Source: a virus
Taxonomy: Duplodnaviria; Heunggongvirae; Uroviricota; Caudoviricetes
DNA length: 33,597 bases
Reading direction: 5' to 3' (one strand)
Virus record (IMG/VR): IMGVR_UViG_3300036453_000040
Below are positions 258 to 32,107 of this stretch, piece by piece. A program made the position numbers and the translations under genes. A model generated the notes under the pieces. The model saw only the letters and a program-made list of their open reading frames with translations, searched no databases and was not told where the DNA came from. Position 1 is the first letter of the stretch, and every line of letters starts with the position of its first letter.

Positions 258-1250
258 CTAGCTCATTTCTTCTAGCTGAATTACTGTAACAGGTGTTGCT
301 TCTACTTGCCCGCGCGCATACAAAATGTTTTCTTTAATAGCGAGAACGCGATATTTACTTCCACGAGGAAGAAGAGCTTCCTGTTCAGTTCTTGAGGCAG
401 ACAAAGGAGCTACGGGAGCTGCGCTACGCGTTTTTATTTCCATGATAACGTTAAACTTACTAAACTTTTTTGCAGTTTCAGGCATATATGAAGTAGGCAT
501 ATAATATTGAGTTTCAAACGTTTCACCAACCTTGAAACGAGAAAGATATGCGGCTTGTTTGTCTTCAGTGGGCACACGGTAATTGTCTTGCATGCTAACG
601 GGAAGCATGCCCTCATGAATACCGCGATAAACTAGGACAGGTTCTTTAGACTTATACTTGGCAAGAGCAGAGTCAATTATTTCCATTCTCTCGTCCAAGT
701 TCTCAGCCGTCCATATTCCGTGGTGCGCTTTATAGGTGTTAATACCAGCGATATGCTTATTTGTTTGCATAGCACCAGTATCAGTCATCCACCTTAGTTG
801 AGCTATCTCATCAGAGTTAAGCGTATTTAACCATGGTGCTGATATGTTGTTGATATCTGTCATTGTTTGCTTGCCGTTCTTATTAGAACGAACTAAATCA
901 TCAGGAGGGAAAGAATTGTCAAAAGCTTCTGGAACTTGAACAAACGAGTGGTCAATTTTTTTGAGATCTAGCGCCTTTAACGCTTGCAGTTGCGTCGTAC
1001 GTACAGTTTTTGCTCGTTGATATCTTGCTTCCAATTGTGCGTTACTCCATGAGGTCTGCAACAGATCTTTGAGGACTTTTAAACCAGCTGGAGTAGCATC
1101 AAAAACGTCTTGCGCTTCTTCAACTTTTCGGTATGATTCAAGTGATTCCTCAGTTGAAGCATTTTTCAACTCTTCCTTGTATGTAAAAGCTGTCGCTAAC
1201 AAAGATGCCGCATGAGAACTGCAACGAGGGCCAGGTGAAGGATAACACAT
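258..1250 (-). CDS. ADP-ribosyltransferase (VIP2/ExoS/T4 Alt-like R-S-E clade) with an N-terminal C-x7-C-x2-H tag
   Basis: C-terminal motifs VLVYRG, YMPTS (STS-like) and TEQEALLPRGSKYRV (E-x-E); N-terminus MCYPSPGPRCSSH. Confidence 0.85.
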   Translation of the reverse strand: MCYPSPGPRCSSHAASLLATAFTYKEELKNASTEESLESYRKVEEAQDVFDATPAGLKVLKDLLQTSWSNAQLEARYQRAKTVRTTQLQALKALDLKKIDHSFVQVPEAFDNSFPPDDLVRSNKNGKQTMTDINNISAPWLNTLNSDEIAQLRWMTDTGAMQTNKHIAGINTYKAHHGIWTAENLDERMEIIDSALAKYKSKEPVLVYRGIHEGMLPVSMQDNYRVPTEDKQAAYLSRFKVGETFETQYYMPTSYMPETAKKFSKFNVIMEIKTRSAAPVAPLSASRTEQEALLPRGSKYRVLAIKENILYARGQVEATPVTVIQLEEMS

Positions 1251-1265
1251 ATATTATATATAACA
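1251..1265 (-). promoter_or_regulatory. Candidate element-specific promoter motif yGTTAnnTAT (tGTTAtaTATAatat-ATG)
   Basis: GTTA at -14..-11 from the ATG, the same position as upstream of 7885, 15262 and 21552. Confidence 0.55.
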
Positions 1266-1296
1266 ACTCAAGCGCTGTCTAAATAATGCTTTAAAC

Positions 1297-2091
1297 CTAT
1301 GCTTGGTCTGCAAGTTGATTTAATGTTTCAGTTTGTTCTGGGCAGTATGTAGCAACACCCGCTCCAATAATATAACTGCGTTCATATACAAGTTCATCAG
1401 AAATATCCGAGTTGCCACCCGACACGAGTTCTATCAAACTTGAAGTCATTGGTTCTTCACTAGACAGCAAAGCGCAACTTTCAAAAGCTAAAGCTTTCGC
1501 TTCTTCAAACGTGAGAACTGAAGTATCTATCAGTCCCAATGACAGACGGAAATTAGCATCTTGTTCAACTGCACTCGAAATAACGGGTTCATCAGCTACA
1601 GGCCCAGAGATAGTTGGATCGTTAGGAGTATCAGACCCCGTATTTGAAGCATTACCAGATACCCCCGTCATAACAGCCATCAATACAAAAAGCCCTACCA
1701 CTAGCAATAATAGAGCACCCGCTACAGATGAGACAATAACAATTGTCTTCTTCTTTGTGCTCCATCCCCTATTTTTTAGAGACGCAGGATTATAACCTTC
1801 TTGTTGCTCATAGCCATTACCTTGATGTGGCATGCCGTAGTTGAGTTGCTGGCCCTGCTGAGGGTAACCGTTAGGCTGTTGCGGAGTGACATGATTAGGA
1901 TTCTGTCCTCGTTGAGGCCGAGGTGGGAGGCTTGCAACTTGGTAAGGCAAAAACTTCTGTGGTGCCTGCTGAGGTGAGGGTGTACCGTTGTTAGGGTTCT
2001 GAGGTGGGTGAGGGTAGCCAGCGGGTGAGTTACTGTCATCAGCCTGATCATAAGGATTCTGATTCGGGTTACCGAATAACGGATTTGACAT
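1297..2091 (-). CDS. Membrane-anchored protein: Pro/Gln/Asn-rich N-terminus, one TM helix, C-terminal DUF732-like domain
   Basis: Low-complexity PQ/NP region; hydrophobic IVIVSSVAGALLLLVVGLFVLMAVM; C-terminal ESCALL...IIGAGVATYCP resembles actinobacterial DUF732. Confidence 0.6.
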   Translation of the reverse strand: MSNPLFGNPNQNPYDQADDSNSPAGYPHPPQNPNNGTPSPQQAPQKFLPYQVASLPPRPQRGQNPNHVTPQQPNGYPQQGQQLNYGMPHQGNGYEQQEGYNPASLKNRGWSTKKKTIVIVSSVAGALLLLVVGLFVLMAVMTGVSGNASNTGSDTPNDPTISGPVADEPVISSAVEQDANFRLSLGLIDTSVLTFEEAKALAFESCALLSSEEPMTSSLIELVSGGNSDISDELVYERSYIIGAGVATYCPEQTETLNQLADQA

Positions 2092-2220
2092 TTAACAGTA
2101 TCGCCTTTCTGGCTTTCCTTATAGGTATCGGAGAAAACTTAAAAGGCATTATGCACAGATCGCGTAAACCTGTGAACTATGGTAACAAGGTAACTCACAA
2201 GCAAAAAGGATTACTACCAT

Positions 2221-2871
2221 ATGATGATGGATGATTTCATTGAAAAGGAATACCTACAGCAAGATGTTGAAGCAGCAGCGTACTCTTTCATAGAGGCAGG
2301 TTTTGTCACAAAACTCGAACTAGCAGAAATGATTCTAGTAAACGTCCTTGATGGAGCTGTAACAGATATCCGCCATGATATGAAAGCAGCTAAAGCCCCG
2401 TTCGTAGAAGAATCCGTTATCGCAAAACGCGCCGAGGAGCTTATTAGGTTATTCTCTGATGAGCTTTACGACAAAACTGTCATTAAGCAAGAATCATGGG
2501 GTGGAACAACTCACCAGAAATTAGCTGTTGCATTTAAAGAGCTAGAGACACAGGGTATTCGCGCTGAAATGAATTTTGAGTGTTGTAACTCATGTGGAGG
2601 ATATGCCATGAAGAACGACGGAAAGTCGGAAGGTTACAAGGGGTACGTGTTCTTCCACGAGCAAGATATGGAAAGTTTACTTTTCGAACGCGTAATGTAT
2701 CTGTCTTACAGCATGTTTAACCAGAAATATGACAATGAGGAAGAGGTAGCTTTAGCTAAGCAAATCATAAAAGTTCTTAAAAAACATAGCTTCGAGATCG
2801 AATGGGATGGCACAGCTGATCATCGTATCAGAATTATTAACCTTGGATGGACCAAACGCCTCATTGACTAA
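2221..2871 (+). CDS. DUF6891-like protein
   Basis: AFKELETQGI..NFECCNSCG..GYVFFHEQD..IEWDGTADHRI pattern recalled as DUF6891. Confidence 0.65.
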   Translation: MMMDDFIEKEYLQQDVEAAAYSFIEAGFVTKLELAEMILVNVLDGAVTDIRHDMKAAKAPFVEESVIAKRAEELIRLFSDELYDKTVIKQESWGGTTHQKLAVAFKELETQGIRAEMNFECCNSCGGYAMKNDGKSEGYKGYVFFHEQDMESLLFERVMYLSYSMFNQKYDNEEEVALAKQIIKVLKKHSFEIEWDGTADHRIRIINLGWTKRLID

Positions 2872-2919
2872 AGCTTCTAGTTCTCTAAGGGAAAACGTTT
2901 TTCCTGCTATACTCCAGAG

Positions 2920-5378: not shown

Positions 5379-6002
5379 CTAGGGGCGCTTGCGAGATACT
5401 AGAATCTGGTCAATGATTCCATATTCTAGCGCTTCCTGAGCCGTAAGAAACTTGTCACGGTCAAGGTCACTGGAAACAGTTTCAATTGGCTTACCAGTGT
5501 GAAAAGCTAGCGTGCTTTCAAGCCACTTGCGCATACGAAGAATCTCTTCCGCTTGAATCTCAATGTCAGACGCTTGACCGCGTTCGCCCTGAGAAGAAGG
5601 CTGATGAATTAGGATTCGTGCGTTAGGCAGGGCAGACCGCTTACCCTTTTGTCCACCTGCAAGCAAGAGAGCAGCAGATGAGGCAGCTTGACCAAGGCAA
5701 ACTGTATTAATATGAGGAGAAACATACTGCATGGTATCGTAAATTGCAGCAAGCGCAGTCATGCTTCCACCTGGAGAGTTGATATACATGGTAATATCCG
5801 CTTCGCGGTCCATGGACTCAAGTACTAGAAGCTGTGACATTACATCATCAGCGGAAGTATCATCAATCTGAACTCCAAGGAAGATAACCCGCTCCTGAAA
5901 AAGGCGAGTATAAGGGTCCTGAGTTTTCACACCATAGGCAGTGCGCTCCTCAAACGAGGGTAGGACATACCGTGAGCTAGGCATCGTGTCTTGAATGTTC
6001 AT
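5379..6002 (-). CDS. clpP2: ATP-dependent Clp protease proteolytic subunit, actinobacterial ClpP2 type
   Basis: [28 protein letters not shown] (Ser), LIHQP (His), RDKF (Asp). Confidence 0.93.
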   Translation of the reverse strand: MNIQDTMPSSRYVLPSFEERTAYGVKTQDPYTRLFQERVIFLGVQIDDTSADDVMSQLLVLESMDREADITMYINSPGGSMTALAAIYDTMQYVSPHINTVCLGQAASSAALLLAGGQKGKRSALPNARILIHQPSSQGERGQASDIEIQAEEILRMRKWLESTLAFHTGKPIETVSSDLDRDKFLTAQEALEYGIIDQILVSRKRP

Positions 6003-6634
6003 TATTTTGCCGCCTTTTCAGTTCTAGAGATTACAACGTCATTAACGTTAGCTTGAATGTGATCGAAGAAACCAAAAGCTAGAGCTTCCTCAGCGTTGTA
6101 CCAACCGTCACGGTTACCAGCAGCATGAATCTCTTCTACCGTGTGCCCCGTGTTCTCTGCTGTGATAGCAGCTAGGCGATGCTTCATGTCGATGATGAGC
6201 TTAGCCTGCGTCTGAATGTCATCAGAAGTACCGCCAAAGCCACCTGAAGGCTGATGAAGAAGAACCCGAAGGTTAGGCGTAGCGAACCGCTTGCCTTTTG
6301 TTCCAGAGGAAAGGAGGAACTGACCCATTGAGGCGGCCATACCAATTCCAATAGTAACAACATCATTGGGAATAAGGTTCATCGTATCGTAGATCGCCAT
6401 ACCTGAGGTGATCGAACCACCTGGAGAGTTGATATAAATATAAATATCTTTTTCAGGGTCTTTAGCAGAGAGAAGAAGCAACTTTGCGCAAATCTCATTT
6501 GCCATGCCGTCATTTACGTCTGTACCAAGCCAGATGATACGACTCGGAAAAAGTTGATCAAAAACTGTTCCAGCGGGAGCAGCGGGTGATGGTGAATTAG
6601 CCAAGTAATTTACTTCCTTCATATGTAATTTCAA
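6002..6634 (-). CDS. clpP1: ATP-dependent Clp protease proteolytic subunit, actinobacterial ClpP1 type
   Basis: [36 protein letters not shown]; TAATG stop/start overlap with clpP2; exact start uncertain. Confidence 0.92.
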
Positions 6635-7869: not shown

Positions 7870-7884
7870 TGTTAGGTATATAGC
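7870..7884 (+). promoter_or_regulatory. Candidate promoter motif tGTTAggTATAtagc-ATG
   Basis: 13 of 15 nt identical to the upstream of 21552 (cGTTAgtTATAtagc). Confidence 0.6.
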
Positions 7885-8733
7885 ATGAAGATAGCGCCAA
7901 GCAAGTGCAGCAAAAAACGAAATGAGTACTGCCGCATTCACAACCCTGAGCCAAAAGGGTTCACTCCCGAGAACCGTCGCCGTTTCATCATGCAGGGAAT
8001 CGTAGCATATCGCGCTCAGCAAGCAACCAACTCTAAGCCTGCCTGCGTCCCCGAAGCTGAATCTTATGCGAAGCAGGACGCGGAACAAGCTAGCCTTGAA
8101 AACGATAAGCTAACACAAGAGCACGCTTATCGAGTAGCAGACCTAGACAAGCACATGAACTTAAAAGTTAACAATAAAACAGGAGAGCGAACTATCTCCG
8201 TATACAGAGCAGGAGTACCTCAAGCTCCCTCAGCGCGTACGATAGAAAAAGAATCATATCTTACCGCTGACTCACATGCACCTGAGGGACGACAGGGGCG
8301 CATGTCAGCCGTTTTCGCGTCACCCACCATGCATGGAGTGACCGCATGGGTTAGAGGCACTAGCAGCGTTGTCAGCGATTGGGGAGTAAGAGAGATTCGT
8401 GTTAACCCTGATGAAGTTTACGTTTATTCTGTAAGAGCATGGGAGAAAGCCTCACGGGAAGAAGCAGATCAAGATTCCTCAAAAAAGTATTGGGCTACAG
8501 GTATAACGCTTACAGAATGGAACGAAAAACTGAGATCAGATCCTCAGCTAGACCCACAAGAATGGGAACTACTCATAGGTGAGTCACAGTTTAAAGCTAA
8601 ACCGAAGCCAGTAGCTGCTGAAAAAGTAGCAAGGAGTTCATACTCATCTGATAACGGAGAACCTAATCTAAACTTACTTCTCCTCCTTACCAGAGACCTA
8701 AAGAAGCGCAAGCAAGCAGATAAAGCTTCTTAA
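7885..8733 (+). CDS. C-x7-C-x2-H-tagged protein with a possible divergent ART-fold domain
   Basis: N-terminus KCSKKRNEYCRIHNP; ISVYRAG...VFASPT...REIRV; the fold call is weak. Confidence 0.55.
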   Translation: MKIAPSKCSKKRNEYCRIHNPEPKGFTPENRRRFIMQGIVAYRAQQATNSKPACVPEAESYAKQDAEQASLENDKLTQEHAYRVADLDKHMNLKVNNKTGERTISVYRAGVPQAPSARTIEKESYLTADSHAPEGRQGRMSAVFASPTMHGVTAWVRGTSSVVSDWGVREIRVNPDEVYVYSVRAWEKASREEADQDSSKKYWATGITLTEWNEKLRSDPQLDPQEWELLIGESQFKAKPKPVAAEKVARSSYSSDNGEPNLNLLLLLTRDLKKRKQADKAS

Positions 8734-15262: not shown

Positions 15263-15277
15263 AAAAGATACCTAACG
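15263..15277 (-). promoter_or_regulatory. Candidate promoter motif cGTTAggTATctttt-ATG
   Basis: GTTA at -14..-11 from the ATG. Confidence 0.55.
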
Positions 15278-17360: not shown

Positions 17361-17410
17361 ATATATTATACAGCATTCGTTCTTTCACCCTTATAATGTT
17401 AGGAAAACCG

Positions 17411-19265: not shown

Positions 19266-20540
19266 TTAAATATAACGATTATTGAGAATCATTGCATCTA
19301 AGCCAGCAATATACGCTTTACCTCTCAGTACCGCAATAGCTTCACTTCTTTTTTGCTCTAACGTCCCCCACGTTTCATTTTGCTCGTTGATTTCTGGAGC
19401 GTTACGCCTTCTAAGAAGTTTCTGCCTATGGATTAAGCCTTTATAGTTCTCCTCATAACCGTTAACGCGAGCTTCAACTGTCGCAATATCAGCCTGCTCA
19501 GCATAAGTTAACTCACGTGACCTGATTTCTTCCTTGAGTGAGGTAACGCGGGCTAGTTCCTTCTTGTCTGATGCCAAAACTTCTGTTTTAATAGTTGATA
19601 TGTTTGCGTTTTCGGCATGCTGAGAGGCCCTCCTGAAGATGCTTCCAGCTACGCCCTGTTCGTTGTGAGCAAGACTCCTGTTTACAATCTCCCAGCCAGT
19701 AATATTTTCTCGAACATAACGCTTAGCAATTTTCAAACCAGTTACGGCAGTGATATTTTTATTTTCAGCAAGTGATCGCAAGGGGTCCTTATTAAAATGT
19801 TCTTCTGACGCGCTCGGCGCTTTTGCAAGTACAGTGTTATGTGATTCTTGCAATTTAGAGTACCTTGCCATCACTCTGAAATATGCATAGCGAGCATCTG
19901 AATCAGTTACATCAAGCGACTCCGTTTTAACTCGCATTTCTTTTTCTAACTCGGGGACTGAGAAAAAAGTTTGAGGATTATGTGTAGCTAAGTAAGCAAG
20001 ACCATGAGGAGTTTGCTTCGAGATATTATACTTATCTTCAAAAGTGAGCTTTTCAGTCCTCATAATGAGATCAACTAGCTTGTCATCATTTTCACCTGCT
20101 ACTAGCTTCTGTAGGTCAACTCCAAGCATTGGTGATGATTCATATATACCCTTTTCAGCTATGCCATACTTAACTTCCATTGAAGCACGATCTAGGATAT
20201 CATCTCGAATATTTGCAGGAGTGTTAGGGTTATTCACGAGACCCAATACAGAATAAACTTCTTTGCCTGCGCTTGTACTCAAGTTGGGAGATATTGACTT
20301 ATAAATCTCGCTTATATCCTCCGTGCTCAAGTTAGACGAGAATATGTTCAAGCCGCTGCGAGCAATACGGTGAATGAACTCTTCGGAAACTACGACCTTT
20401 TTTGCTTCTATAGCTTCCAACTCAGTTCGAAGCTTGAAATAGCCTTCTAAATCACTTTTTGCTGCTAGCCCTTGTATAGCTGCTTGCATTTCGCCTTTGC
20501 TGCAAAATTTCCCATGTTCGTCATGATATGGATTAGCCAC
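19266..20540 (-). CDS. MANPYHD-tagged alpha-helical (LRV-like repeat) protein
   Basis: GTG start with AGGGGA RBS; MANPYHDEHGKFCSKGEM; NNPNTPANI and LAENKNIT repeat-like motifs. Confidence 0.7.
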   Translation of the reverse strand: MANPYHDEHGKFCSKGEMQAAIQGLAAKSDLEGYFKLRTELEAIEAKKVVVSEEFIHRIARSGLNIFSSNLSTEDISEIYKSISPNLSTSAGKEVYSVLGLVNNPNTPANIRDDILDRASMEVKYGIAEKGIYESSPMLGVDLQKLVAGENDDKLVDLIMRTEKLTFEDKYNISKQTPHGLAYLATHNPQTFFSVPELEKEMRVKTESLDVTDSDARYAYFRVMARYSKLQESHNTVLAKAPSASEEHFNKDPLRSLAENKNITAVTGLKIAKRYVRENITGWEIVNRSLAHNEQGVAGSIFRRASQHAENANISTIKTEVLASDKKELARVTSLKEEIRSRELTYAEQADIATVEARVNGYEENYKGLIHRQKLLRRRNAPEINEQNETWGTLEQKRSEAIAVLRGKAYIAGLDAMILNNRYI

Positions 20541-20874: not shown

Positions 20875-21552
20875 TCATTCTGGGAAACTAACACCAAACT
20901 CATTGAGGTCATTGCCCTCAGTCCATAGGTACCTAGCAGGAATCTTCGCTTCTAACACGGGCCAATCATCCGCTGCGTCATCTTGCATACCATGTTGCAA
21001 GGCATAGCTTTTACTCATAGTAACCCAGTCACCGTTGTTAATCTGGTTAACTCCATGTGGAGCGCTTCTATAAATAGTAACTAAAGCGTCAGGGTTACCC
21101 TGTATACGCTTCATTATGTTCACAGAATTACGGTCAAGATCCCCCGTATACCAGTCTGGGTGTTCCATCACGTCAGAAGGGAAAATTTTAGCTAACTCAT
21201 GTGCGCCTTTAGCTGATTCGTCATCATCTAACCCATCAGGAGCACGATGAGACATGTAATACTCGCTGTTAGCAGGGCGAGAGCCAAACCCTTGTTTCCA
21301 TTCTGGAACTGTGACGGTTTTAACGGGCTTTGTAGCCTTCGTTAAAGTAGTAGACCCACCTTGTCCAAACATTGCTAATAATGCCTTAGCGTCAGGCTTA
21401 GCGGTCTTCTCGCTAGCTTTAGCTGACAGGTAAGCACTCACGTTGCCGCTAAGAGCAGCTTGTGTTACCGCAGAACTATGGCCAATAGAACAATTAGTCG
21501 TCCAACATCCACTACCATCAGAATGAGTATAAGGAGCTTGACGTTTCGACAT
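20875..21552 (-). CDS. Cys/His-tagged protein with an ART-like domain of the kind seen in phage polyvalent/MuF-linked proteins
   Basis: N-terminus APYTHSDGSGCWTTNCSIGH; C-terminal SHRAP, VTIYRS, GDWVTMSKSYALQHG, NEFG. Confidence 0.6.
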   Translation of the reverse strand: MSKRQAPYTHSDGSGCWTTNCSIGHSSAVTQAALSGNVSAYLSAKASEKTAKPDAKALLAMFGQGGSTTLTKATKPVKTVTVPEWKQGFGSRPANSEYYMSHRAPDGLDDDESAKGAHELAKIFPSDVMEHPDWYTGDLDRNSVNIMKRIQGNPDALVTIYRSAPHGVNQINNGDWVTMSKSYALQHGMQDDAADDWPVLEAKIPARYLWTEGNDLNEFGVSFPE

Positions 21553-21567
21553 GCTATATAACTAACG
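21553..21567 (-). promoter_or_regulatory. Candidate promoter motif cGTTAgtTATAtagc-ATG
   Basis: Near-identical to 7870..7884. Confidence 0.6.
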
Positions 21568-21762: not shown

Positions 21763-22245
21763 CTATAATTGGAATTCTAAGCTATCCATTATAAGAATGT
21801 AAAAATTCGTTGCGTTGTTACAGGCATCCTTGAAACAAGCAATCTTCACGACATTAGCTTGTGGGTCGATTGCTACAGAGTTATTCATGTTAGGGGCATC
21901 AGGTATTACTCCTCCACAAACAAGACTACTGGCATGAGTAAAATTATGTAGCAAAAATTCATTTATAAAAATAAAATCTTGGCCCATTACTTTTGCTAAG
22001 CTAGAATAAGCGTTTTCCGTTTTAGATTTATAAAAATTTAATTTAACAGACTTTCCGTTTACTCCCCAACCGAGGGAGTCTTCGCTGGCTGTTTGTAAAT
22101 AGAATCCATCTATAGCAAACGAGTAACCATCTTCTTCGTTAAGACTCGCAAAAACCATAGAAATACTTGTAGTCGCGAGAAGAACCTGCACGCTTGATTC
22201 TTCAGGTATTAGTAGTATTGTTTTGATGTAAGTTTCTTTGTACAT
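21763..22245 (-). CDS. Putative immunity protein for the RHS nuclease tip
   Basis: Starts 24 nt after the RHS stop on the same strand, AT-rich, 160 aa; assignment by position only. Confidence 0.55.
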   Translation of the reverse strand: MYKETYIKTILLIPEESSVQVLLATTSISMVFASLNEEDGYSFAIDGFYLQTASEDSLGWGVNGKSVKLNFYKSKTENAYSSLAKVMGQDFIFINEFLLHNFTHASSLVCGGVIPDAPNMNNSVAIDPQANVVKIACFKDACNNATNFYILIMDSLEFQL

Positions 22246-22269: not shown

Positions 22270-25200
22270 TTACTTGTAGATAAACCAATCTCCAACCTTA
22301 ATTTGATTATCAGTATAGAATTGCAATAACGCTCTACCATGGCGACGATTGTCACTTGGGTTTATATAACGTACTGAAGCTCCGACCCCGCCTGCGCTTA
22401 TTGAAGCAGGCGGAGACTCATCGCGATCAAACCCTTTTTTTGTAGGTATGCCTTTTAGGGACTCACTTCGGTTGATTGAGGCATCTGCTGAACTTAGACG
22501 CTGTACAAGAATCTTTTTTCCTTGTAATGCATCCCCGTTATGTAAAGCGGCCTCGCCAAAGCGCGCCTGCTGAGAATTAAATTGCGCATAAATATTCGCA
22601 TTGATTTTTGTCTTTGTTTTTCCATGTATATAAACTGTTTCGCGCTTGGATAACATGGCATTCAAAATAGTGGGAAACTTAGCCTTTCCAGCAACTTTCG
22701 CTGTTTTAAACAGTCCCGCACTTGCCTTTACTATCAACCCCGCAATTTTCACCCCAGCGGCTCCTGGTACAACTAGTCCAGCAACACTTCCCGCAACATT
22801 ACCAACCTGATAAACGCTAGAACAGATATCAATTACGCCAGGCGCTACCGCTCCTAGATAAGCTTCATATAGCCCACCGCTCATACCATTCATAAACCCA
22901 GCAGCGCCGTTCAGAAACGCTAGAGTCTCGGAACTCAACCCGAGCGGGTCAGTATAAGAGAGCGGGTTACCAACTGTGTAACCGTAGGGCAGGTTAGTTT
23001 TGGCTAGCGCTGGGTCAACCGTTATGAACTGTGCTGTTACAGGGTCATACCAGCGGGCGCGCATGTAATAATAGCCAGTGTCCTCATCAAGGTACTGCCC
23101 TGCATAGCCAAAACGGGTTGTAACATGGCCTAATTCGCCAGCGGTTTGTACCCCATAATCATCGTACGTATACTGGGCTACTTCAAGACCAACAGAGTCA
23201 GTAACCAATGATACTGACCCAATAGAGTCCCCATGTAAATATTCAACGTTGCTTGTGGTTTTATCAACCTGAGCAAGAGGCGTGGAACCTAAACCATATA
23301 TGTAATTATACTTGTCATCCTCAAGCAGTTGAGCTATGCTAGTATTCGTATTCCACACGTATGAGTCAGAACTACCTGTGGAACCATTTACCTTAGTTTT
23401 TCCACTAAGTAGCCCGTTACCGTCATAAGAATAAGTCAAATCAGTTGCTATACCAGCTTCAACTGTATTCTCAGGTGGAGGGTTTGCCGCTAGTTGCGCC
23501 TCGACTAACTGGTTAGCAAGGTTATAGCCGTAGGTGTTATCAGATGTTGTTGTAGAAGCTAAATCCAGTGAGGCGCTTACCCTATTACCACGAGTATCGT
23601 ACGCATAATTCGTTGTACTGGAGTCAACAGTATCCGCCAAGCTAGTTATTTGGCTTAAGGCGTTATACGTAAGCTGAGTGCCGTTATCTCTAGTTAAAAT
23701 GTTGTTTGAGTTATCAAAACTATAAGCCGCGACTGCGTTTTTATTGCCTAAACGAGATAGTGAATCATATTCGTAACCGTCATTAACAGTTATCGCTTCA
23801 CGAGTTACCGCTTTGTTTGTTACCAAGTTTAAGCTATTATAGGTGTATGCATACGTAAGCAATGCAGAGCTAGCACTGCTATAATTGATCTTTCCTATAG
23901 CGCCATTTGTCGCATATGAGTTTACCCCTGTAACCCCATTACCATAATCAGTTGAAGCAATACGAGAATCTTTATCGTAGCTATATTTAATAGGGTTAGC
24001 TAAGCTAGAACTTTTAACGCTCTGTAGGCGGTTTAAAGCATCGTAACCGTAAGAAGCAACTTCTCCTGACGGATAGGTTATACTCGTCTCCAGTAGAGCG
24101 TTATAGGCGTAAGAAGTGGTATCAGAACCTTTAGTCTCTGTCAGTAAGCGAGAAAGTTTGTCATAAGTGTATGTGGTTACCCCCGTCCCATCAACCATAG
24201 AAGTTTTGCGTCCAAGAGCATCATACTTGTATTCGATTGCAGGTGTAAGCAAGTCGGAATACGAAATATTGGTAAGCTGTCCGCGATTGTCATAGGCATA
24301 TCCCGTGGTACTTGAATCTGCGGCAATTTTAGAACTAACTTGGCCTGCTAAGTTATAAGTGTAACCTGTTGCCACTCCAGCGATGTTACTTGCTATTAGC
24401 TGATTAATATTATTATAATCATATGTCGCAGTTTTGCTTGCAGAATCTGTATGAGACGTAGTTCTTCCATCTGGATCGAATACCCAAGATTCGGTAGTGC
24501 CATCAGGTTTTGTTACAGAAGTTAGCTGGCCGTTCTTGTTATAGACATAAGACGTAACATTACCAACCGCATCAGTAACAGTTGCTAAGTTTGCGGCTGG
24601 GGTAACACCGTATGTGTAGCTAGTTTTGTTATCAGCGGCATCATATGATTCTTTTAGCTTTCCATCAGCTCCGTAAATATTACGAGTTATGAGACCCTCA
24701 GGCGAAGTCACCTTAAGTACATTGCCGCGCCAGTCATATTCATATGCCGTTTCATTACCCAAAGCATCACGGCTCAGCACCATATGGCCATAAATATCAT
24801 ACTTATATTCAATTATTGAGCCTAGGGAGTCAGTAACAGAAATAACTTGATTTAGGTTATCGTAAATATATGTTGTTGCGCTACCTTCCGCGTTAATAGA
24901 TTTAAGAAGGTTGCCATTTAAATCGTATTTTAGCTCTGATATGTTGCCTAAAGTATCCTTGACTGCAATAGGGCGAGAGTTGTTATCATAGGTCGTTGTA
25001 GTAACATTATTGTTTTCATCTGTAACCGTGGTCACATTACCGCGAGTATCATATGCGGACGACGTGATATTGCCATCTACGTCTTTCGCTTGTGTCACAT
25101 TACCTGAAGCGTCATAACTAAAGGCCATTAAACTATTAGCATCATCTATTGCTGATGCTATATTATTCTCCGCATCATATACATAAGATGTTTTGTATCC

Positions 25201-28200
25201 AAGAGGAGATAAGGTGCTAGCTATGGTTCCGTTTGAGTTAGGTTCAATAACAGTGGTGTGTCCTTCAGCATCCTTGACGGAAGTTAATGCCCCTGTCGCA
25301 TTATAAAACATATACGTTGCATTACCGTAGGCATCTGAGGACTTAGACGGCGCTCCGTGCTCATTATAGCCAGAGTAAAATAGTTGTCGCCCATTCTCAT
25401 CTATGGAAATTTTTAGGTTACCCGCAAAATCATAATATAGCGAACGAGAAGAACCATCAGGTTGATATACCGCTGTTATGTTTCCTGTAGAGTTATAAAC
25501 ATAAGTCCATGCTAGGGGGTTAAGACTACCATATCCTTTTATCTCTTTTACTAGCTGGCCAAAGTTCGCGTATGATTGTTGAACTTGACTACCATCAGCA
25601 TAGGTGATTAATGTAGTTGAGGAACCATCCGTTGAGTTTGGGTTGATAACGTACTCAAAAGCAATTTCATTACCTTCTGGATCTGTTTGCTTTATAAGTT
25701 TATTTCCATAATATACGTTAAAAGTTGTTTCTCCTGTCGCACCAACCATGGTAAGCACTTTATGAGCAGAATCATACGTATACTGTTTAAGTACCCCTTG
25801 GTTGTCTTCAACAGAGATTAGGTTATCATTATTATCGTAGACATATCCAACGTAGTAACCAGAAGAGTCAGTGACCCTGCTAATATTTCCACTTGAGTAC
25901 GTAAGTTCGATGAACTTGCCATTATCGCCTGTGATCTTACTTATACGATTTGAAGAATCATAAGATATTAGAAGACGATTATTATAAGCATCCGTTTGGG
26001 AAAGAACGTTTCCATTTATGGAAGAGAATGTAAATTTAGCTCCACCACTGCGTTCCATTACAAACGAATCCGTCAGCGACGAATATGTTAACGATGCTAA
26101 AACTCTAGAAGGAGCAACGTACTCTCCTGAGGGTGTCTTTACGAATGTTACAGTTGACCCGTTTTCTTGAGTAATCTGAATCGATTGCTGGTCTTGTAAA
26201 TTAGTTGTGCTTAGGTCTTCAGCATTACGCAACTTCATATTATAATTGTTTGTCCAACCATAACCCATATTGTTATCGTTTTTATTTGCAGTAAGAACAC
26301 CATAAGCTCGCACGAACTGAAGAGGTAACCCTACGTTAGTTAACGTTACATCGACGTTCTGCTCCCAGAATTCTCCTGTGACAGTATTTATTGGGTCTCC
26401 AGCGCATGCTTGTGTACAATTTGCGGACGGGTTTGAACCACCATATAATTCTGAGGTTGGGACTCCATCAGTGCCCACAGCCCCACCATGCGTTACAAGC
26501 AAAGTATTTGACATGGCTTGAATATCCGTGACGCCAATGATAGAATTATTTTCGTCCTTTTTTGGAGTTCCAACATATGCAACAACATAGTTACTCGTAT
26601 TCTGAGGAAGATATATTTCGGAAGAAGTATGATAATAGGGGATCGTCCACCATGTATTGTCTGTGGCATTATGCATTACATAATTATAGCCTGCCCAAGT
26701 TATGTCTTGGTTCGGCTCAAACCCAAGGGTTGCAATGTAATATGAACTATAGGCATCCTTACGGGTGGTATAACCAACGGAAAGAGTCCAATCTTTACGT
26801 GTAGCTGTTACGGGTGAGCTTATCGCTTGAATTTCTGTAAGCTGGGAAACATTGCTGAGGGTTGTATCTCTCCGCGCGATATACGCAACATATGTTCGAG
26901 ATTTTTCTTGAGCTTTCCAATCAACATCTACTACCAAGTTGCCATAGTTTGTACTTCTTACAATAGATCCCGTGTCAGTCCTTATTAGATAAGTTTCGTA
27001 ATCGCTATAGTAAGTTTCTTGGTCAGGTATAACAGTAACGATTGGTTTCATGTCGTGATTAGAATTATAATAAGTTGGCTCAAACACTGGATTCACAATG
27101 GATATATCCATAGCCCATGCTTTTCTAGTGAAGGTTATTGTATTGCTTACTGCTTCAATATTATTTAAGGCAGTTATCGTTGAAGCAGTGTTATCTGTTG
27201 GCGCTACATAAGCGGTAACGTTGAGCGGGTCACCTGATCTAAAGTAGACTTCCGCTAAACCAGTTAGGGAACTTGCTCCCCATGGAGACCTATAAAAGAT
27301 ACCTCCAGTAGAATCATTTACCATGTAGATACTGTAATTAGAAAAATAATAGTCTTGGTTAACCGCAAAAGTTGCGTACGGCTTTTTCTCATATTCTACA
27401 TCTTGGTTGGCTGCCTCAAACACTGGGTTTATTGCGGCAAGGGAAATAGTCCATGCTTCACGTTCAGCCGTTACGACTCCGCTTTCTGCCTGAATATTAA
27501 TAAGTTCTTCAACTTTAGTAGGAGCCGTATCAGTCCATTCAGAAACGTATGCTTGGTAGCTTCTTGTTTTATCTCCACCTCTCCACGTTATCTCACCTCC
27601 TGCGCGAAAACTACCATGTTGCAGAAAACTCAGCGTGTTATTTGTAATATCAAATACATATATTCCGTATATTGTAGAGCTAGGGTCTTGGTTTGCATCC
27701 GCCGTGATATAAGTTTTTTCGTCTGACCCGAACAGCGGATTATCAATCTGGAGGTCAATACCCCAGCCAGTATTCATGCTTACAGACTGTTGATCAGCTA
27801 ATGGTTCAGCTAGAGGTGCTTCTTGGTTAGAATCCACGACATATGACTTCGGCATCTTGCTAGATGGGACTTTAGGCGACTTTACAGCTAGCTTCTTATC
27901 ACTTTTCGAGGATGGTAAAGCTTCAGTGGTCTCACTATTCTTAGAAGTTGAAACCGAAACCGCCCGAATTGCGGCAGATTGAGCATGGATCTTATTATGT
28001 GCGGTTGTGTCGATTACGAATGTACAGTCAACTAATACCGTGCATGTTTTTAATATTTCGAAGGTTTCAGAATCAACGATAGATACGGGGTATTCGCTAG
28101 GAACGCTTTTTACATTGCCAACAACAATAACTTCAGCTTGAGGCGCGATACCTGTTGGTTTAATTACTAGAGATAAATTTTCAAGCTTTTCTGCTTTTTC

Positions 28201-28359
28201 AGCGAGCGGGTAATTGGAATTATCTGCAACTTTTCCTGCGGTTGGGTCTTGTCCATTAGCTGCTACTGCTGATTGCGGTGAAAGAGTAAGCGACGTAACC
28301 ATGATCACAGAAGCTAAAACAAAACTCATTATTGACTTATAGTTCATATTAAAACCCAC
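22270..28359 (-). CDS. Secreted RHS/YD-repeat polymorphic toxin with a NucA/NucB-like DNase tip
   Basis: Sec signal (MNYKSIMSFVLASVIMVTSLTLSPQSAVA); GDPINTVTGEF (DUF6531-like); YD repeats; RFGYAGQYLD..YYMRARWYDP core; PLSYTDPLG cleavage motif; tip NRSESLKGIP..DRDESPPA..SVRYINPSDNR. Confidence 0.9.
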   Translation of the reverse strand: MGFNMNYKSIMSFVLASVIMVTSLTLSPQSAVAANGQDPTAGKVADNSNYPLAEKAEKLENLSLVIKPTGIAPQAEVIVVGNVKSVPSEYPVSIVDSETFEILKTCTVLVDCTFVIDTTAHNKIHAQSAAIRAVSVSTSKNSETTEALPSSKSDKKLAVKSPKVPSSKMPKSYVVDSNQEAPLAEPLADQQSVSMNTGWGIDLQIDNPLFGSDEKTYITADANQDPSSTIYGIYVFDITNNTLSFLQHGSFRAGGEITWRGGDKTRSYQAYVSEWTDTAPTKVEELINIQAESGVVTAEREAWTISLAAINPVFEAANQDVEYEKKPYATFAVNQDYYFSNYSIYMVNDSTGGIFYRSPWGASSLTGLAEVYFRSGDPLNVTAYVAPTDNTASTITALNNIEAVSNTITFTRKAWAMDISIVNPVFEPTYYNSNHDMKPIVTVIPDQETYYSDYETYLIRTDTGSIVRSTNYGNLVVDVDWKAQEKSRTYVAYIARRDTTLSNVSQLTEIQAISSPVTATRKDWTLSVGYTTRKDAYSSYYIATLGFEPNQDITWAGYNYVMHNATDNTWWTIPYYHTSSEIYLPQNTSNYVVAYVGTPKKDENNSIIGVTDIQAMSNTLLVTHGGAVGTDGVPTSELYGGSNPSANCTQACAGDPINTVTGEFWEQNVDVTLTNVGLPLQFVRAYGVLTANKNDNNMGYGWTNNYNMKLRNAEDLSTTNLQDQQSIQITQENGSTVTFVKTPSGEYVAPSRVLASLTYSSLTDSFVMERSGGAKFTFSSINGNVLSQTDAYNNRLLISYDSSNRISKITGDNGKFIELTYSSGNISRVTDSSGYYVGYVYDNNDNLISVEDNQGVLKQYTYDSAHKVLTMVGATGETTFNVYYGNKLIKQTDPEGNEIAFEYVINPNSTDGSSTTLITYADGSQVQQSYANFGQLVKEIKGYGSLNPLAWTYVYNSTGNITAVYQPDGSSRSLYYDFAGNLKISIDENGRQLFYSGYNEHGAPSKSSDAYGNATYMFYNATGALTSVKDAEGHTTVIEPNSNGTIASTLSPLGYKTSYVYDAENNIASAIDDANSLMAFSYDASGNVTQAKDVDGNITSSAYDTRGNVTTVTDENNNVTTTTYDNNSRPIAVKDTLGNISELKYDLNGNLLKSINAEGSATTYIYDNLNQVISVTDSLGSIIEYKYDIYGHMVLSRDALGNETAYEYDWRGNVLKVTSPEGLITRNIYGADGKLKESYDAADNKTSYTYGVTPAANLATVTDAVGNVTSYVYNKNGQLTSVTKPDGTTESWVFDPDGRTTSHTDSASKTATYDYNNINQLIASNIAGVATGYTYNLAGQVSSKIAADSSTTGYAYDNRGQLTNISYSDLLTPAIEYKYDALGRKTSMVDGTGVTTYTYDKLSRLLTETKGSDTTSYAYNALLETSITYPSGEVASYGYDALNRLQSVKSSSLANPIKYSYDKDSRIASTDYGNGVTGVNSYATNGAIGKINYSSASSALLTYAYTYNSLNLVTNKAVTREAITVNDGYEYDSLSRLGNKNAVAAYSFDNSNNILTRDNGTQLTYNALSQITSLADTVDSSTTNYAYDTRGNRVSASLDLASTTTSDNTYGYNLANQLVEAQLAANPPPENTVEAGIATDLTYSYDGNGLLSGKTKVNGSTGSSDSYVWNTNTSIAQLLEDDKYNYIYGLGSTPLAQVDKTTSNVEYLHGDSIGSVSLVTDSVGLEVAQYTYDDYGVQTAGELGHVTTRFGYAGQYLDEDTGYYYMRARWYDPVTAQFITVDPALAKTNLPYGYTVGNPLSYTDPLGLSSETLAFLNGAAGFMNGMSGGLYEAYLGAVAPGVIDICSSVYQVGNVAGSVAGLVVPGAAGVKIAGLIVKASAGLFKTAKVAGKAKFPTILNAMLSKRETVYIHGKTKTKINANIYAQFNSQQARFGEAALHNGDALQGKKILVQRLSSADASINRSESLKGIPTKKGFDRDESPPASISAGGVGASVRYINPSDNRRHGRALLQFYTDNQIKVGDWFIYK
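26490..27765 (-). repeat. Four tandem ~105-aa beta-rich repeats in the RHS N-terminal region (boundaries approximate)
   Basis: Units start WGIDLQIDNPLF / WTISLAAINPVF / WAMDISIVNPVF / WTLSVGY and end IQAESG / IEAVSN / IQAISS / IQAMSN. Confidence 0.75.
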
Positions 28360-28743: not shown

Positions 28744-29739
28744 CTAAATTGGAAATTGTTCCGTACGAGTTTTCCAGATCAACTTCGAAGCCATTAGCTT
28801 GCTTATAAACACAGCTACCGAAATTATGGCGAAAATGCTTATAAAACTGCCAAATGAACTCGCGCCATTAAATGAAAATAAAATCTGAACAAAACTTAAA
28901 ATACTTCCTAACCCAAACCATAAACCCATAAATGAGTTACGAAATTTTATATCTGCCTTTTTCCATGTTTTCACAGTAGCATAGCCAGCATTCGAGAACT
29001 GAAAAATCGCATATGCAGGACCAAGCTTATCCCACTTCGCTTGTTCTTTCTCTTGAGCGCGTCTCATACGGGCATAATACTCGTTAGCTGATTCAGAATT
29101 AGGATGCCCAGAATGACTATTCGCTTTCTTCCTGCTGTTTGCCTTCCTTTTTTCTTCATTTTCAGCATAAGCAGCGTAGCGTTCTTCTCTATTCCTAGTA
29201 TCTTGCTCTTGTTGCTCTTTAGCGTATTGAGTGGCTCGCCCTTCCCTATCTCTCGTTGAAGTGTTCGCACGCTGACGACGAGCTTGAGCATGAGCTTCAT
29301 CTGTCTTGACCTGTTCACGGGCAGCTTTGCTTGCTTCTTCGTTTACGCGGATTTTCTCCTCGGAAGCCTTAAAGACTTCTTCCTTAAAAAAGTCTCCCTG
29401 AAACCCGTACTTGAAGAAATCCTGAAGAAATTCTTCCGTATAGATTGGTTCACTCTGTTTTGGGGAACTAGTATACGTCTTTGTAGTGGGCTGATATGTA
29501 GCTCCTCTACTACCAGTAGAGTTAGACGCGTTAGCTTTTCTCCGCTGAAGTAGCGAGTCATAGCTTGCCCGCTTATTAGGGTAACCGAGTGTCTCCCATG
29601 CTTCTTGCACTTTGCGGAACACGTCAACGTCTCCACCAAGGTCAGGGTGACTGGAGCGAACAAGTTTACGGTAAGCAGTTTTAAGCTCTTCAGGGGAGGC
29701 TAGGTTACTCACCTTCAACACATCATACAAAGTGCTCAT
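28744..29739 (-). CDS. J-domain (DnaJ type III) protein with C-terminal TM helices
   Basis: LYDVLKV...LKTAYRKL...HPDLGGD; charged linker; two hydrophobic C-terminal helices. Confidence 0.88.
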   Translation of the reverse strand: MSTLYDVLKVSNLASPEELKTAYRKLVRSSHPDLGGDVDVFRKVQEAWETLGYPNKRASYDSLLQRRKANASNSTGSRGATYQPTTKTYTSSPKQSEPIYTEEFLQDFFKYGFQGDFFKEEVFKASEEKIRVNEEASKAAREQVKTDEAHAQARRQRANTSTRDREGRATQYAKEQQEQDTRNREERYAAYAENEEKRKANSRKKANSHSGHPNSESANEYYARMRRAQEKEQAKWDKLGPAYAIFQFSNAGYATVKTWKKADIKFRNSFMGLWFGLGSILSFVQILFSFNGASSFGSFISIFAIISVAVFISKLMASKLIWKTRTEQFPI

Positions 29740-29776
29740 GCTAGTCCGTCCCTAATCATTTTTCTCTCGTACCCTG

Positions 29777-29870: not shown

Positions 29871-30623
29871 TTAAGTTTTGGTCTTCATGTACTCCATTTT
29901 TCTCATTTCCCACACGACTTTACGGCCGAATATAAGACAAGAAATGATTATTGCATCAATGAACAATGCAAAAAATGAAGCAACGATGAAAGCTAGAGTG
30001 AACAAAGAGGACGGTTCCATGTTTATGAAGTTAATAACAAATACAGCAATGTTAATTGGAATAAGGGTAAGGAGAACTGTCTTCAATATGAGGGAATCAG
30101 TTCTTTTCCACTGTTGTACAAGAAAGAATTCAGCAGTGGACGTTCTGAATGCATTATACTTAGCTCCAAGTTTTGACCATTTAGCAGCTATATATTCTTC
30201 CTTGAATGTTGTGTCTTCTTTTGCGAAAGTACCGTTCATTTTCGCCATGTCTTCATGAATCTTGTTTATGAGTCGCGTTTGTTCATCGCGCATTTCTTGC
30301 CATGCTTTTTTATCTTCGAATAGTCCAGCGGGACGATCACGAGCTTCTGTAGCCATGCGAGCTTCTGCATACATGCGTGCTTTTCTTGCAAACTGCGTGT
30401 CATCGTTAGGCGAGGTAGTTGCGCGAGGCGCGTGAGTTTGGTCATAGGCCGCGCGCTTTGTAGGAGTCTCGATAGTCTCCCATGCTTCTTGAACCTTACG
30501 AAACTTTTTTATGTCTCCACCAAGGTCAGGATGATTCTCTCGTACCTTCCGACGATATGCCGTTTTGATCTCTGCATGGCTAGCAGTTGCTGCAACACCT
30601 AGCACCTTATAACAGTTGCTCAC
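29871..30623 (-). CDS. J-domain protein with C-terminal TM helices, paralog of 28744..29739 (start revised to GTG 30623)
   Basis: CYKVLGV...IKTAYRR...HPDLGGD; GAGGAGG RBS before the GTG; shared KW.KLG..Y..F...WK..D segment. Confidence 0.85.
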   Translation of the reverse strand: MSNCYKVLGVAATASHAEIKTAYRRKVRENHPDLGGDIKKFRKVQEAWETIETPTKRAAYDQTHAPRATTSPNDDTQFARKARMYAEARMATEARDRPAGLFEDKKAWQEMRDEQTRLINKIHEDMAKMNGTFAKEDTTFKEEYIAAKWSKLGAKYNAFRTSTAEFFLVQQWKRTDSLILKTVLLTLIPINIAVFVINFINMEPSSLFTLAFIVASFFALFIDAIIISCLIFGRKVVWEMRKMEYMKTKT

Positions 30624-30797
30624 AATCCTCCTCATAAGTTCGTTGTTCAATTTCACTCAAGCGCAATCTTATCACAATTAAACATATATTCGCAAATCAA
30701 AAACAAGAAAGTTTAATGTGAAAATATTAGTCATGCGCTAGCTATTGTCAGTAGCATGTGTTAGAGTTAAGTTATTCACGAAGAGAGGCTGTTCATT

Positions 30798-30947
30798 ATG
30801 ATGCTCGTCAACTCCCGTACCGCTAAAAGCTGCTGCAAGGACTGCGACAGCAACTATGGTCACAGCGATAACTCCAAAGCCAAGAACCAGTTGAAGCGCG
30901 CTGTTCGTCGCCGCGAGAAGCGCAACTGGAAAGCAGACCAGAACTAA
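30798..30947 (+). CDS. 49-aa basic Cys-containing peptide missed by the ORF track (MMLVNSRTAKSCCKDCDSNYGH...KRAVRRREKRNWKADQN)
   Basis: GAGAGG RBS; open frame to TAA at 30945-30947; followed by a hairpin. Confidence 0.7.
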   Translation: MMLVNSRTAKSCCKDCDSNYGHSDNSKAKNQLKRAVRRREKRNWKADQN

Positions 30948-30964
30948 ACATTAAGCACCACCTA

Positions 30965-31004
30965 TAATTGTAGCTCCAACCTAATGAGGTTGGAGCTACA
31001 ATTA
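30965..31004. terminator. 18-bp-stem hairpin with a variant core (GCTCCAAC/GTTGGAGC)
   Basis: taattgtagctccaacct-aatg-aggttggagctacaatta. Confidence 0.75.
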
Positions 31005-31041
31005 GTTTAAGCTCATCTCAGCATTGCACTCTTAACGAAAC

Positions 31042-31057
31042 CGTTATTTATAAGAGT
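31042..31057 (+). promoter_or_regulatory. Candidate promoter motif cGTTAttTATAagagt-ATG
   Basis: GTTA at -15..-12 from the ATG. Confidence 0.5.
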
Positions 31058-32107
31058 ATGAGTACAAAAACCTCCCGCCCATGTCGTGCGAATAATCCTA
31101 AAATATGCCCCCATCACGGGACACCAGTTGAGCTAAATCAAGCAACCGTCTTACAAAGTAAAATTCAAGCTGTTTTAGCTACCCCAGATGAAGTTAACCC
31201 TAGGTTGTTAGCTTCAAGTCAACTCATTGATAATGCTGCTACCTCATCGCTTAAATGGGAAGGTGAACAACCCACATGGTGGGCTGAATACAAGCGAGAT
31301 TCCGAGAATCACGAACTTGTACCTACAACAGCTGAGTTAATCGACATAATTGACTCACCAGAAGGTAAGCTTGCCGTAGTATGGCAGAATGAATCTCAAC
31401 GCGAAATGGATTCAGGTATTTCTTTAGGTAGTGGTTATGGCACTCGTATTTGCTATTTCAAATCAGTCGAAACTGGAAAAACTCTCGGGTTCGTTAACAT
31501 GGCGTATATGGATAAGGACTCTGTAGAGCGCACTTTTGGCAATGACGAAATGACTCCTTATCGCTGGAACAGTCGATACGGTGGGACTAGATACCCGTTT
31601 GAAAGAGAAAATCAAACATATGGAGATCGTGACTTAAAAGATGAGGCCCTCAAGGAACAACGCCGTAAAGTATGGGTTGTAGCTGCGCGTGACGCCCGCC
31701 GCACAATTCGCGATGCTGATGGGGACTACGTAAGTTACTATAATATTAACGAAAGTCATATTCCCGATGATGCTACAGTCGAGAAAGACTTAAAAGAATT
31801 TGCTGCCCCTATTAAAAAAGAAATGCGCAATGCAAAGAACTATTATAGTACTCCCTACGTTGACTACTCAGAGGTGGAGAAACCACTTAAAGGGCAGGGA
31901 TACGGTACAGCTCTTTATGTTTACACGGCGAGAATGTTAGCAAAAGAAGGTAAAGTACTTAGAGGTTCAGGTTTACAATCTGATGACGCGCAAAAAATAT
32001 GGGGACGCTTCAAAGAAAAATTCCCGAATAACGTTTCTTCTATTAATCAAAACTATAAAGGCCAAAAATCACAAGCACCGATTTTCGATTTTAGAGAAAA
32101 AGGATAG
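31058..32107 (+). CDS. C-x7-C-x2-H-tagged protein with a C-terminal GNAT-like domain
   Basis: N-terminus RPCRANNPKICPHHG; C-terminal VDYSEVEKPLKGQGYGTALY...SGLQSDDAQKIWGRF. Confidence 0.7.
   Translation: MSTKTSRPCRANNPKICPHHGTPVELNQATVLQSKIQAVLATPDEVNPRLLASSQLIDNAATSSLKWEGEQPTWWAEYKRDSENHELVPTTAELIDIIDSPEGKLAVVWQNESQREMDSGISLGSGYGTRICYFKSVETGKTLGFVNMAYMDKDSVERTFGNDEMTPYRWNSRYGGTRYPFERENQTYGDRDLKDEALKEQRRKVWVVAARDARRTIRDADGDYVSYYNINESHIPDDATVEKDLKEFAAPIKKEMRNAKNYYSTPYVDYSEVEKPLKGQGYGTALYVYTARMLAKEGKVLRGSGLQSDDAQKIWGRFKEKFPNNVSSINQNYKGQKSQAPIFDFREKG

Follow-up and report, generated by a model that had tools for sequence, protein, structure and literature searches.

The 33,597-nucleotide stretch of DNA analysed here in full (hereafter, the window), a virus record of the class Caudoviricetes (IMG/VR IMGVR_UViG_3300036453_000040) from an uncultured mobile element of giant size, encodes unrelated effector-type enzymes that begin with members of one portable family of small Cys/His modules, which are maintained by selection and whose genes are co-regulated in this element. 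The core of the family is the motif C-x7-C-x2-H, which we call the short tag; the family as a whole is larger and heterogeneous, and is represented both in fusions within phage head modules and in conjugative elements. As the likeliest single explanation, we tentatively favour the possibility that the tag is a docking handle that sends enzymes along with invading DNA.

Placement of the tag

Six-frame translation of the window yields five exact copies of C-x7-C-x2-H, four of which start at residues 2, 8, 5 and 9 of open reading frames (ORFs) of 330, 282, 237 and 349 amino acids (aa), respectively; the fifth (18048-18083, minus strand) lies in a junk frame of 13 codons. The four cores are CYPSPGPRCSSH (1212-1247, minus strand; residues 2-13 of the ADP-ribosyltransferase, or ART, encoded at 258-1250), CSKKRNEYCRIH (7906-7941, plus strand; residues 8-19 of the product of 7885-8733), CKAEIRSDCRFH (17423-17458, plus strand; residues 5-16 counted from the ATG at 17411 of the gene at 17411-18124) and CRANNPKICPHH (31082-31117, plus strand; residues 9-20 of the product of 31058-32107); below, the last three are designated by their first coordinates. 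An initial annotation of this DNA had reported the motif at the N-termini of the same four proteins, and all four peptides are indeed present as quoted, between residues 2 and 20, with the correction that the ART gene is on the minus strand.

The expectation that the motif would be commoner at N-termini than internally is borne out by a pool of 275 ORFs, each 90 aa or longer, taken from the window and about 20 related loci: 14 exact copies fall within the first 30 residues and none in the other 56,380, and a looser Cys-Cys-His pattern gives 24 N-terminal and 4 internal matches. About half of the 14 N-terminal motifs belong to orthologs of the 31058 gene that was used to fetch the loci, and the remainder to other genes, in the window and in two of the loci (L002 and L015). 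Given 14 N-terminal against 0 internal copies, a chance origin of this placement is excluded.

Could the four proteins resemble each other fortuitously, or be full-length paralogs? The motif is short, with three fixed residues, and the ART tag differs from the other three outside these positions. Against both possibilities, hhalign aligns the 31058 and 7885 families over the tag alone (25 columns, E = 4.9e-5) and finds no significant match of either to the ART family, where just 13 columns align (E = 0.34); the bodies are therefore unrelated, as the initial annotation maintained. Furthermore, the short tag is retained across orthologs at 38-70% identity, and its association with a promoter-like motif (see below) is highly significant. 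Chance and paralogy are, for practical purposes, refuted by the motif placement, the promoter association and the hhalign comparison, and the probability that we leave to them is negligible. What did not survive is the notion of one uniform tag: the four are not identical modules, and the ART copy belongs to a distinct N-terminal domain of about 100 aa.

Tag classes and their conservation

Seven of the 31 ORFs of the window, or about 1 in 5, carry tag-type N-termini, namely the four with the exact motif and the products of 20875-21552, 13934-15262 and 19266-20540, all three on the minus strand. The first of these (225 aa) joins a hybrid tag, H-x5-C-x4-C-x3-H (21478-21525), to a body annotated as a 'ParB C-terminal domain' (phrog_2579, 4.5e-35). 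The other two, of 442 and 424 aa, are paralogs with what we denote class-2 tags, M-A-N-P-Y-H-D-x3-G-K-F-C (15221-15256) and M-A-N-P-Y-H-D-x2-G-K-F-C (20502-20534), respectively.

In the 31058 family, the alignment of 36 sequences (A1) gives the tag consensus K-C-R-A-K-D-P-x-x-C-R-Y-H-G, followed by a linker of 30-40 residues that varies in both length and sequence, and then by a well-conserved body; the conservation score, for which the share of the commonest residue in each column is averaged, is 0.60 for the tag, 0.26 for the linker and 0.58 for the body. Overall, the scores are 0.60-0.89 for tags, 0.26-0.37 for linkers or mid regions and 0.43-0.64 for bodies, so conservation of the tags equals that of the catalytic bodies, and the linkers fall short of it. 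A signal at the nucleotide level was considered as the cause of this conservation and rejected: the tag is kept as protein sequence from 42% to more than 60% GC, including relatives with Shine-Dalgarno leaders.

The portability of the tag and its attachment to unrelated enzymes, also claimed in the initial annotation, are manifest in the interchange of tag forms between orthologs, which may carry the short C-x7-C-x2-H form, a long His-Cys-Cys-His form, Met-Cys forms or no tag at all. Distant orthologs of the 31058 protein (26-33% identity) have a His-Cys-Cys-His tag of about 45 residues instead of the short one (L015-L021, P0174, P0187, P0190), and two others have an N-terminal motif devoid of Cys. 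ART bodies are found behind at least four tag types: among the ART matches listed, the additional N-termini are the ~45-residue His-Cys-Cys-His form, a Met-Cys...Arg-Arg-Cys form and the form of ORF 20875-21552 (the last in P0127). In the Met-Cys class, the tag is followed by Arg/Lys-rich helices; speculatively, the free amine at the N-terminus of these forms might be a ligand.

No model in Pfam or NCBIfam matches any tag class at E values up to 0.1, although the HMMER filters may lose very short domains. With the long His-Cys-Cys-His tag as the query, tblastn found no match in the phage or plasmid collections, a result that does not imply absence given the shortness of the query, and an ESM Atlas search gave no usable match.

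The ADP-ribosyltransferase and the plasmid-borne class

The protein encoded at 258-1250 (330 aa) combines an N-terminal domain of about 100 aa, which starts with M-C-Y-P-S-P-G-P-R-C-S-S-H, with an R-S-ExE body that matches Pfam ADPrib_exo_Tox over residues 139-309 (1.2e-19, 70.9 bits, with a cutoff of 23.4). The earlier identification of an E-x-E ADP-ribosyltransferase is confirmed by this match and by the invariance of R209, E289 and E291 across 40 homologs, and catalytic activity is plausible. By tblastn, the protein has no match in the phage collection.

An exhaustive HMMER search with this protein recovered 285 cluster representatives, of which 150 were listed, and 98 of these 150 start with M-C-Y-x-x-P-G-P-R-C. 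In this class, hereafter class A, Cys2 and Cys10 are invariant in all 98 sequences. Because the matches are often limited to residues 1-100 and continue into non-ART bodies without a Pfam family, class A is a domain of approximately 100 residues, for which AlphaFold2 (AF2) predicts a loop (residues 1-10) and four helices, with a predicted local distance difference test score (pLDDT) of 93. Fold searches with this domain were uninformative: they returned only generic helical matches in PDB, and the best rows among AFDB clusters were N-termini of unnamed proteins.

The distribution of class A is sporadic (1-3 of 401 Actinomycetota genomes sampled) and linked to actinobacterial mobile DNA. It is present on 21 Rhodococcus megaplasmids of 214 kb to 1.12 Mb, on one Kineococcus plasmid, and in low-GC islands in genomes of the Micrococcales Citricoccus, Agrococcus, Demequina and Microbacterium; in the last three, it occurs in an island together with Met-Cys-type tags. 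In the one plasmid region read, that of pR8L1, class A is found near FtsK/SpoIIIE and ParA genes. The one island annotated, from Demequina, encodes TrbL/VirB6, two integrases and a DNA methylase and is, on the strength of these genes, an integrative and conjugative element (ICE).

Portal fusions and polyvalent proteins

When IMG/VR is searched with a DNA pattern back-translated from the short tag, seven exact matches result, each of them inside a long ORF. In two of these (L043 and L046), a Mu-type portal domain, the tag and a PBECR nuclease follow one another in a single ORF, which in L043 is directly preceded by the gene for the terminase large subunit; in L044, the tag comes after a Phage_portal_3 domain (E = 1.6e-113) in an ORF cut by the contig end; and in L045, the tagged ORF is directly upstream of a tape-measure gene. 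The other three matches are in large unassigned proteins with an extra upstream Cys, giving C-x6-C-x7-C-x2-H (L047:4857-4894, L048:9783-9820 and L049:448-485); judging from the motif, this residue would complete the four-ligand site that the short tags of the window lack.

The search with the ART body also recovers polyvalent proteins of 1,352-7,334 aa, along which a motif, N-P-x-H-D-x2-G-R-F, recurs that is the class-2 motif of the window; the Cys knuckle was not found in the polyvalent proteins examined.

Because in phages the tag sits between the portal and a toxin domain, it most likely marks enzymes that travel with DNA. The role in sorting and delivery that had been proposed for the tag from the window alone thus gains indirect support from the portal fusions, while nothing in the window itself shows a capsid.

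The same fusions admit another interpretation, namely that the tag serves processing, stability or regulation, as a protease or chaperone site (for instance, for the ClpPs of the element itself) or as a metal or redox switch that silences toxic enzymes, or shortens their life, in the producer. In the portal fusions, the tag lies at exactly the point at which cleavage would release the nuclease, many of the tagged bodies are potentially toxic ARTs or nucleases, and the window encodes both two tandem ClpP proteins (207 and 210 aa; 5379-6634, minus strand) and two DnaJ-domain proteins. However, no conserved cleavage motif follows the tag in the alignments of the 31058 and 7885 families, there is no linked protease in the plasmid and ICE regions read, and the homologs that consist of the body alone have no evident replacement regulator. 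We consider such a role decidedly improbable.

A promoter-like motif upstream of tagged genes

A motif, GTTAnnTAT(A/C), ends 3-5 nucleotides before the ATG of the tagged genes. As GTTAnnTATA, it lies 4 nucleotides upstream of the start codons of the ART gene (1255-1264, minus strand), of 7885 (7871-7880, plus strand) and of the gene that starts at 21552 (21557-21566, minus strand), and 5 nucleotides upstream of the ATG of 31058 (31043-31052, plus strand). The class-2 gene starting at 15262 is preceded, at 4 nucleotides, by the promoter-like sequence GTTAGGTATC (15267-15276, minus strand), and the 17411 gene, at 3 nucleotides, by a partial motif, GTTAGGAAAA (17398-17407, plus strand), which overlaps an alternative ATG at 17396. 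In the window and five loci (L002, L005-L007 and L015) from low-GC relatives of about 45-60% protein identity, GTTAnnTA is found directly upstream of 13 of the 17 tagged ORFs versus 4 of the 110 untagged ones (Fisher p = 2.6e-11), and the latter four include one class-2 gene and two coincidences within coding sequences. On the basis of this association, the tagged genes appear to form a single set that is transcribed separately and is largely leaderless.

Many of the untagged neighbours have instead an extended -10-like TGnTAnAAT about 6 nucleotides before the ATG, or a leader. At the gene starts 2920, 10195, 18235-19110 and 21763-22245, TGnTAnAAT or TATACT is found at about this distance and there is no Shine-Dalgarno sequence. 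Much of the window may accordingly give rise to leaderless mRNA, transcribed from promoters of the host type that are separate from the GTTAnnTAT class. Relatives of higher GC content have Shine-Dalgarno leaders and lack the GTTAnnTAT motif.

A proposed docking handle and its alternatives

The scenario that we tentatively prefer can be outlined as follows. The handle, joined to an enzyme by a variable linker and working as a portable N-terminal module, would dock diverse enzymes onto one common partner, such that they would be loaded and delivered together with the DNA of the element. In the phage-like relatives, delivery would proceed via the virion, and in the actinobacterial plasmids and integrative elements, via conjugative transfer. 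The delivered ADP-ribosyltransferases, ParB-type proteins and acetyltransferase-like proteins would then go to work on the cell that the element has just entered. A possible partner is an ATPase of the FtsK/SpoIIIE family. Such a protein is encoded in the window a few kilobases from tagged genes (16155-17240, minus strand), and FtsK/SpoIIIE ATPases occur near tagged genes in three independent contexts, namely the window, a 469-kb relative (L004:1-863) and the Rhodococcus plasmid pR8L1 (L042:7837-9939); the mutual identity of the three is just 21-24%.

Several findings weigh against this scenario or against parts of it. The class-A pattern has no match in IMG/VR and, by tblastn, none in 50,697 phage records, whereas class A lives on Rhodococcus megaplasmids and in Micrococcales islands; hence a single capsid route cannot explain all tag classes, and a capsid route of the T4 type is ruled out as the general mechanism. 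Neither virion nor conjugation genes were detected among the ORFs of the 33.6-kb window in Pfam and PHROG scans, so that no structural gene is in view, and a tagged share of about 1 in 5 ORFs is a lot for packaged cargo. The lack of a conserved cleavage motif after the tag, mentioned above, belongs here as well. As for the chemistry of the module, the short forms have three ligands instead of four, just 74% of the class-A sequences retain the His, and the confidence of AF2 for the tag itself is moderate (pLDDT 57-77); in view of the number of ligands and of these pLDDT values, binding of zinc or another metal by the tags is plausible only. Finally, the tags are basic, with a net charge of +0.13 per residue compared with 0 for the rest of the proteins, which fits a role in binding nucleic acids or other targets equally well.

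Indeed, the main rival of the docking handle is that the tag is a target-localisation module: once the proteins have been made in the usual way in the infected cell, a basic Cys/His knuckle would bind host DNA, RNA, RNA polymerase or the ribosome and thereby concentrate many different modifying enzymes on a single host target, with neither packaging nor transfer involved. Apart from the net charge of the tags and the Arg/Lys-rich helices that follow them in the Met-Cys class, this explanation is favoured by the fact that ARTs and the ParB-type domain usually act on nucleic-acid-associated targets; the tagging of about one-fifth of the ORFs is easier to understand for an intracellular address than for capsid cargo; and the dedicated promoter could equally be an early promoter. 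What localisation leaves unexplained is the position of the tag between portal and nuclease in phage head-gene modules, as well as that of the class-2 motif at the module boundaries of polyvalent proteins. On balance, we regard it as a serious contender that is nevertheless somewhat unlikely.

The docking-handle reading can also be extended into a bolder conjecture, which in our estimation is unlikely. Giant phage-like elements, actinobacterial megaplasmids and ICEs would share one modular addressing code, consisting of several interchangeable Cys/His knuckles that are related to the N-P-x-H-D-x2-G-R-F motif, a single docking partner and a separately transcribed 'injectome', amounting to up to approximately 1 gene in 5, that is loaded into the capsid or the conjugation channel. 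If true, this shared code would amount to one protein-sorting system used by viruses and plasmids alike.

Tagged proteins other than the ART

The 7885 protein (282 aa; 7885-8733, plus strand) consists of the short tag, a basic segment, a long helix and an alpha/beta body of about 150 aa. Its family comprises 28 homologs; C-x7-C-x2-H is invariant in 22 of the 22 tagged ones, and the remaining six are the body alone (165-172 aa), without the tag. Some tags of this family, K-C-S-K-A-D-P-S-T-C-x-L-H-G, are the same version as that of the 31058 family. The closest homologs also keep a second Cys (K-K-P-x-C) about 35 residues after the tag, at positions ~50-55, before a helix predicted at 55-90. The AF2 model of the body (pLDDT 90) gives a VIA-align Z of 8.4 to 2aua and of 3-4.7 to DarT, diphtheria toxin, Arr, RES and Tpt1 proteins, so that the fold signal suspected in the initial annotation is seen, weak but consistent and short of proof, and the body may have an ART-superfamily fold.

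The 17411 protein (237 aa; 17411-18124, plus strand) has a body without an assigned family. A single homolog, 92% identical and with the tag kept, was found in 5.8 billion clusters; there was no match in Pfam, PHROG, NCBIfam or PDB and none in IMG/VR, and the ESM Atlas provided sub-threshold, portal-like leads only.

The 31058 protein (349 aa; 31058-32107, plus strand) has a conserved body with a GNAT-like C-terminal motif that contains G-x-G, and one ortholog has been named GNAT by the Joint Genome Institute. Searches against Pfam, NCBIfam and PDB profiles gave no GNAT match, and the previous assignment of this protein to GNAT is thus not confirmed. The family was not found in IMG/VR or in GTDB species genomes. 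The protein is recorded on a contig of 110.7 kb, and its relatives come from metagenome contigs of 0.47-1.0 Mb, which encode chiefly ORFans; a related 697-kb contig encodes rIIA, rIIB and an HNH endonuclease, on which account we consider it phage-like.

The body of the 20875 protein alone matches 180 phage records, nearly all of them from actinophages, whereas the tag region (residues 1-91) has no match. In Gordonia phage CherryTomatoes, a cultured actinophage of 152 kb, a body of this type forms the C-terminus of gp109, an untagged protein of 500 aa (L050:442-1944) whose gene is three genes upstream of the tail terminator.

Other genes of the window

The GC content of the window is about 42%. 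In addition to the ClpP pair and the FtsK/SpoIIIE-like ATPase, the window encodes NucS (15359-16093, plus strand; Pfam NucS_N and NucS_C), an AI-2E transporter, a GNAT and a radical-SAM protein. The combination of a ClpP pair with NucS is typical of Actinobacteria, which suggests an actinobacterial host or, alternatively, capture of these genes from an actinobacterium. Two paralogous DnaJ-domain membrane proteins (28744-29739 and 29871-30656, minus strand) start with a J domain, have a charged central part and carry membrane segments at the C-terminus. Between the second of these genes and 31058 lies a long perfect inverted repeat (30960-31010), probably a terminator. At the end of the window are two paralogs with a D-L-P-x-S-W-x-L-R-type tail (32167-32814 and 32887-33597, minus strand).

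The window also encodes an Rhs protein of 2,029 aa (22270-28359, minus strand) that has a hydrophobic leader at the N-terminus, DUF6531, ten RHS repeats and a NucA/NucB DNase tip. It is untagged, and the region upstream of its gene differs from that of the tagged genes. The 160-aa ORF that follows (21763-22245, minus strand) could be an immunity gene.

Comparison with known systems

The N-terminal signals of phage T4 cargo and of P1 DarB have been shown experimentally to route proteins, and in DarB the N-terminal 30 residues suffice for capsid targeting (PMC9024508). The tags described here resemble these signals: those of T4 (internal proteins IPI-III, Alt) and P1 DarB are short N-terminal addresses that head otherwise unrelated proteins, an ADP-ribosyltransferase among them, and that can be moved from one cargo to another, the cargos taking effect in the next host. 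Like a capsid-targeting sequence (CTS), moreover, the window tags are leaders at the extreme N-terminus, starting at residues 2-9 of four ORFs. There are also differences. The T4 and P1 signals are not modules of the Cys/His type and have no sequence in common with the window tag; the prohead protease cuts the T4 signal off at a defined position, and no counterpart of that position is seen after the window tags; and, unlike in T4 and P1, one tag class is found on conjugative plasmids and in an ICE.

Polyvalent proteins are predicted to be delivered with DNA, as are portal- or MuF-fused toxins (Iyer et al., 2017, PMC5512222). The tagged proteins share with these effectors a repertoire of ART, ParB-type and PBECR domains and a distribution that spans phages and conjugative elements alike; portal-PBECR fusions physically contain the short tag, and polyvalent proteins the class-2 motif. 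In contrast to polyvalent proteins, in which several effector domains belong to one giant chain, the enzymes of the window are encoded by separate genes for single bodies (225-442 aa), each with its own tag and promoter-like motif. Neither cysteine, a zinc ribbon nor a comparable motif came up in term searches within that article (PMC5512222).

With polymorphic toxins, the tagged proteins have in common a constant N-terminal module and swappable enzymatic C-termini (PMC3482391). They appear to differ in that they have no signal peptide and, by Pfam, no known secretion or trafficking domain, and in that there is no consistent co-oriented downstream immunity gene, the neighbours being different and often on the other strand. 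The true polymorphic toxin of the window is the Rhs protein.

Zinc knuckles and ribbons are small modules of nucleic-acid-binding proteins, and the pattern of the classical knuckle is C-x2-C-x4-H-x4-C. The tags resemble them in having two Cys and a His within about 12 residues and basic flanks, and depart from the classical knuckle in the C-x7-C-x2-H spacing, in the presence of three ligands only and in the lack of a Pfam or NCBIfam match.

In the parts of the comparative-genomics literature on polyvalent proteins, jumbo phages and viral NAD/ADP-ribose systems that term searches covered, the tag is described nowhere. As far as we could determine, the module, its variants, their breadth and the linked promoter-like motif are new, whereas the idea of an N-terminal address for delivered effectors is itself established.

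Implications

The genes behind the linked promoter-like motif constitute a candidate regulon open to direct testing, and the relatives on Rhodococcus plasmids and in Micrococcales make the question of what the tag does experimentally accessible. Should the tag prove to be an address label, it would provide, in laboratory strains, a compact means of loading chosen proteins into such particles or transfer routes. The tag links portal- and MuF-fused toxins, polyvalent proteins and the stand-alone effectors of huge elements, which so far have been treated separately. If it is indeed an address label, one could list, from sequence, which proteins are delivered to a new host by giant phages and by actinobacterial conjugative elements.

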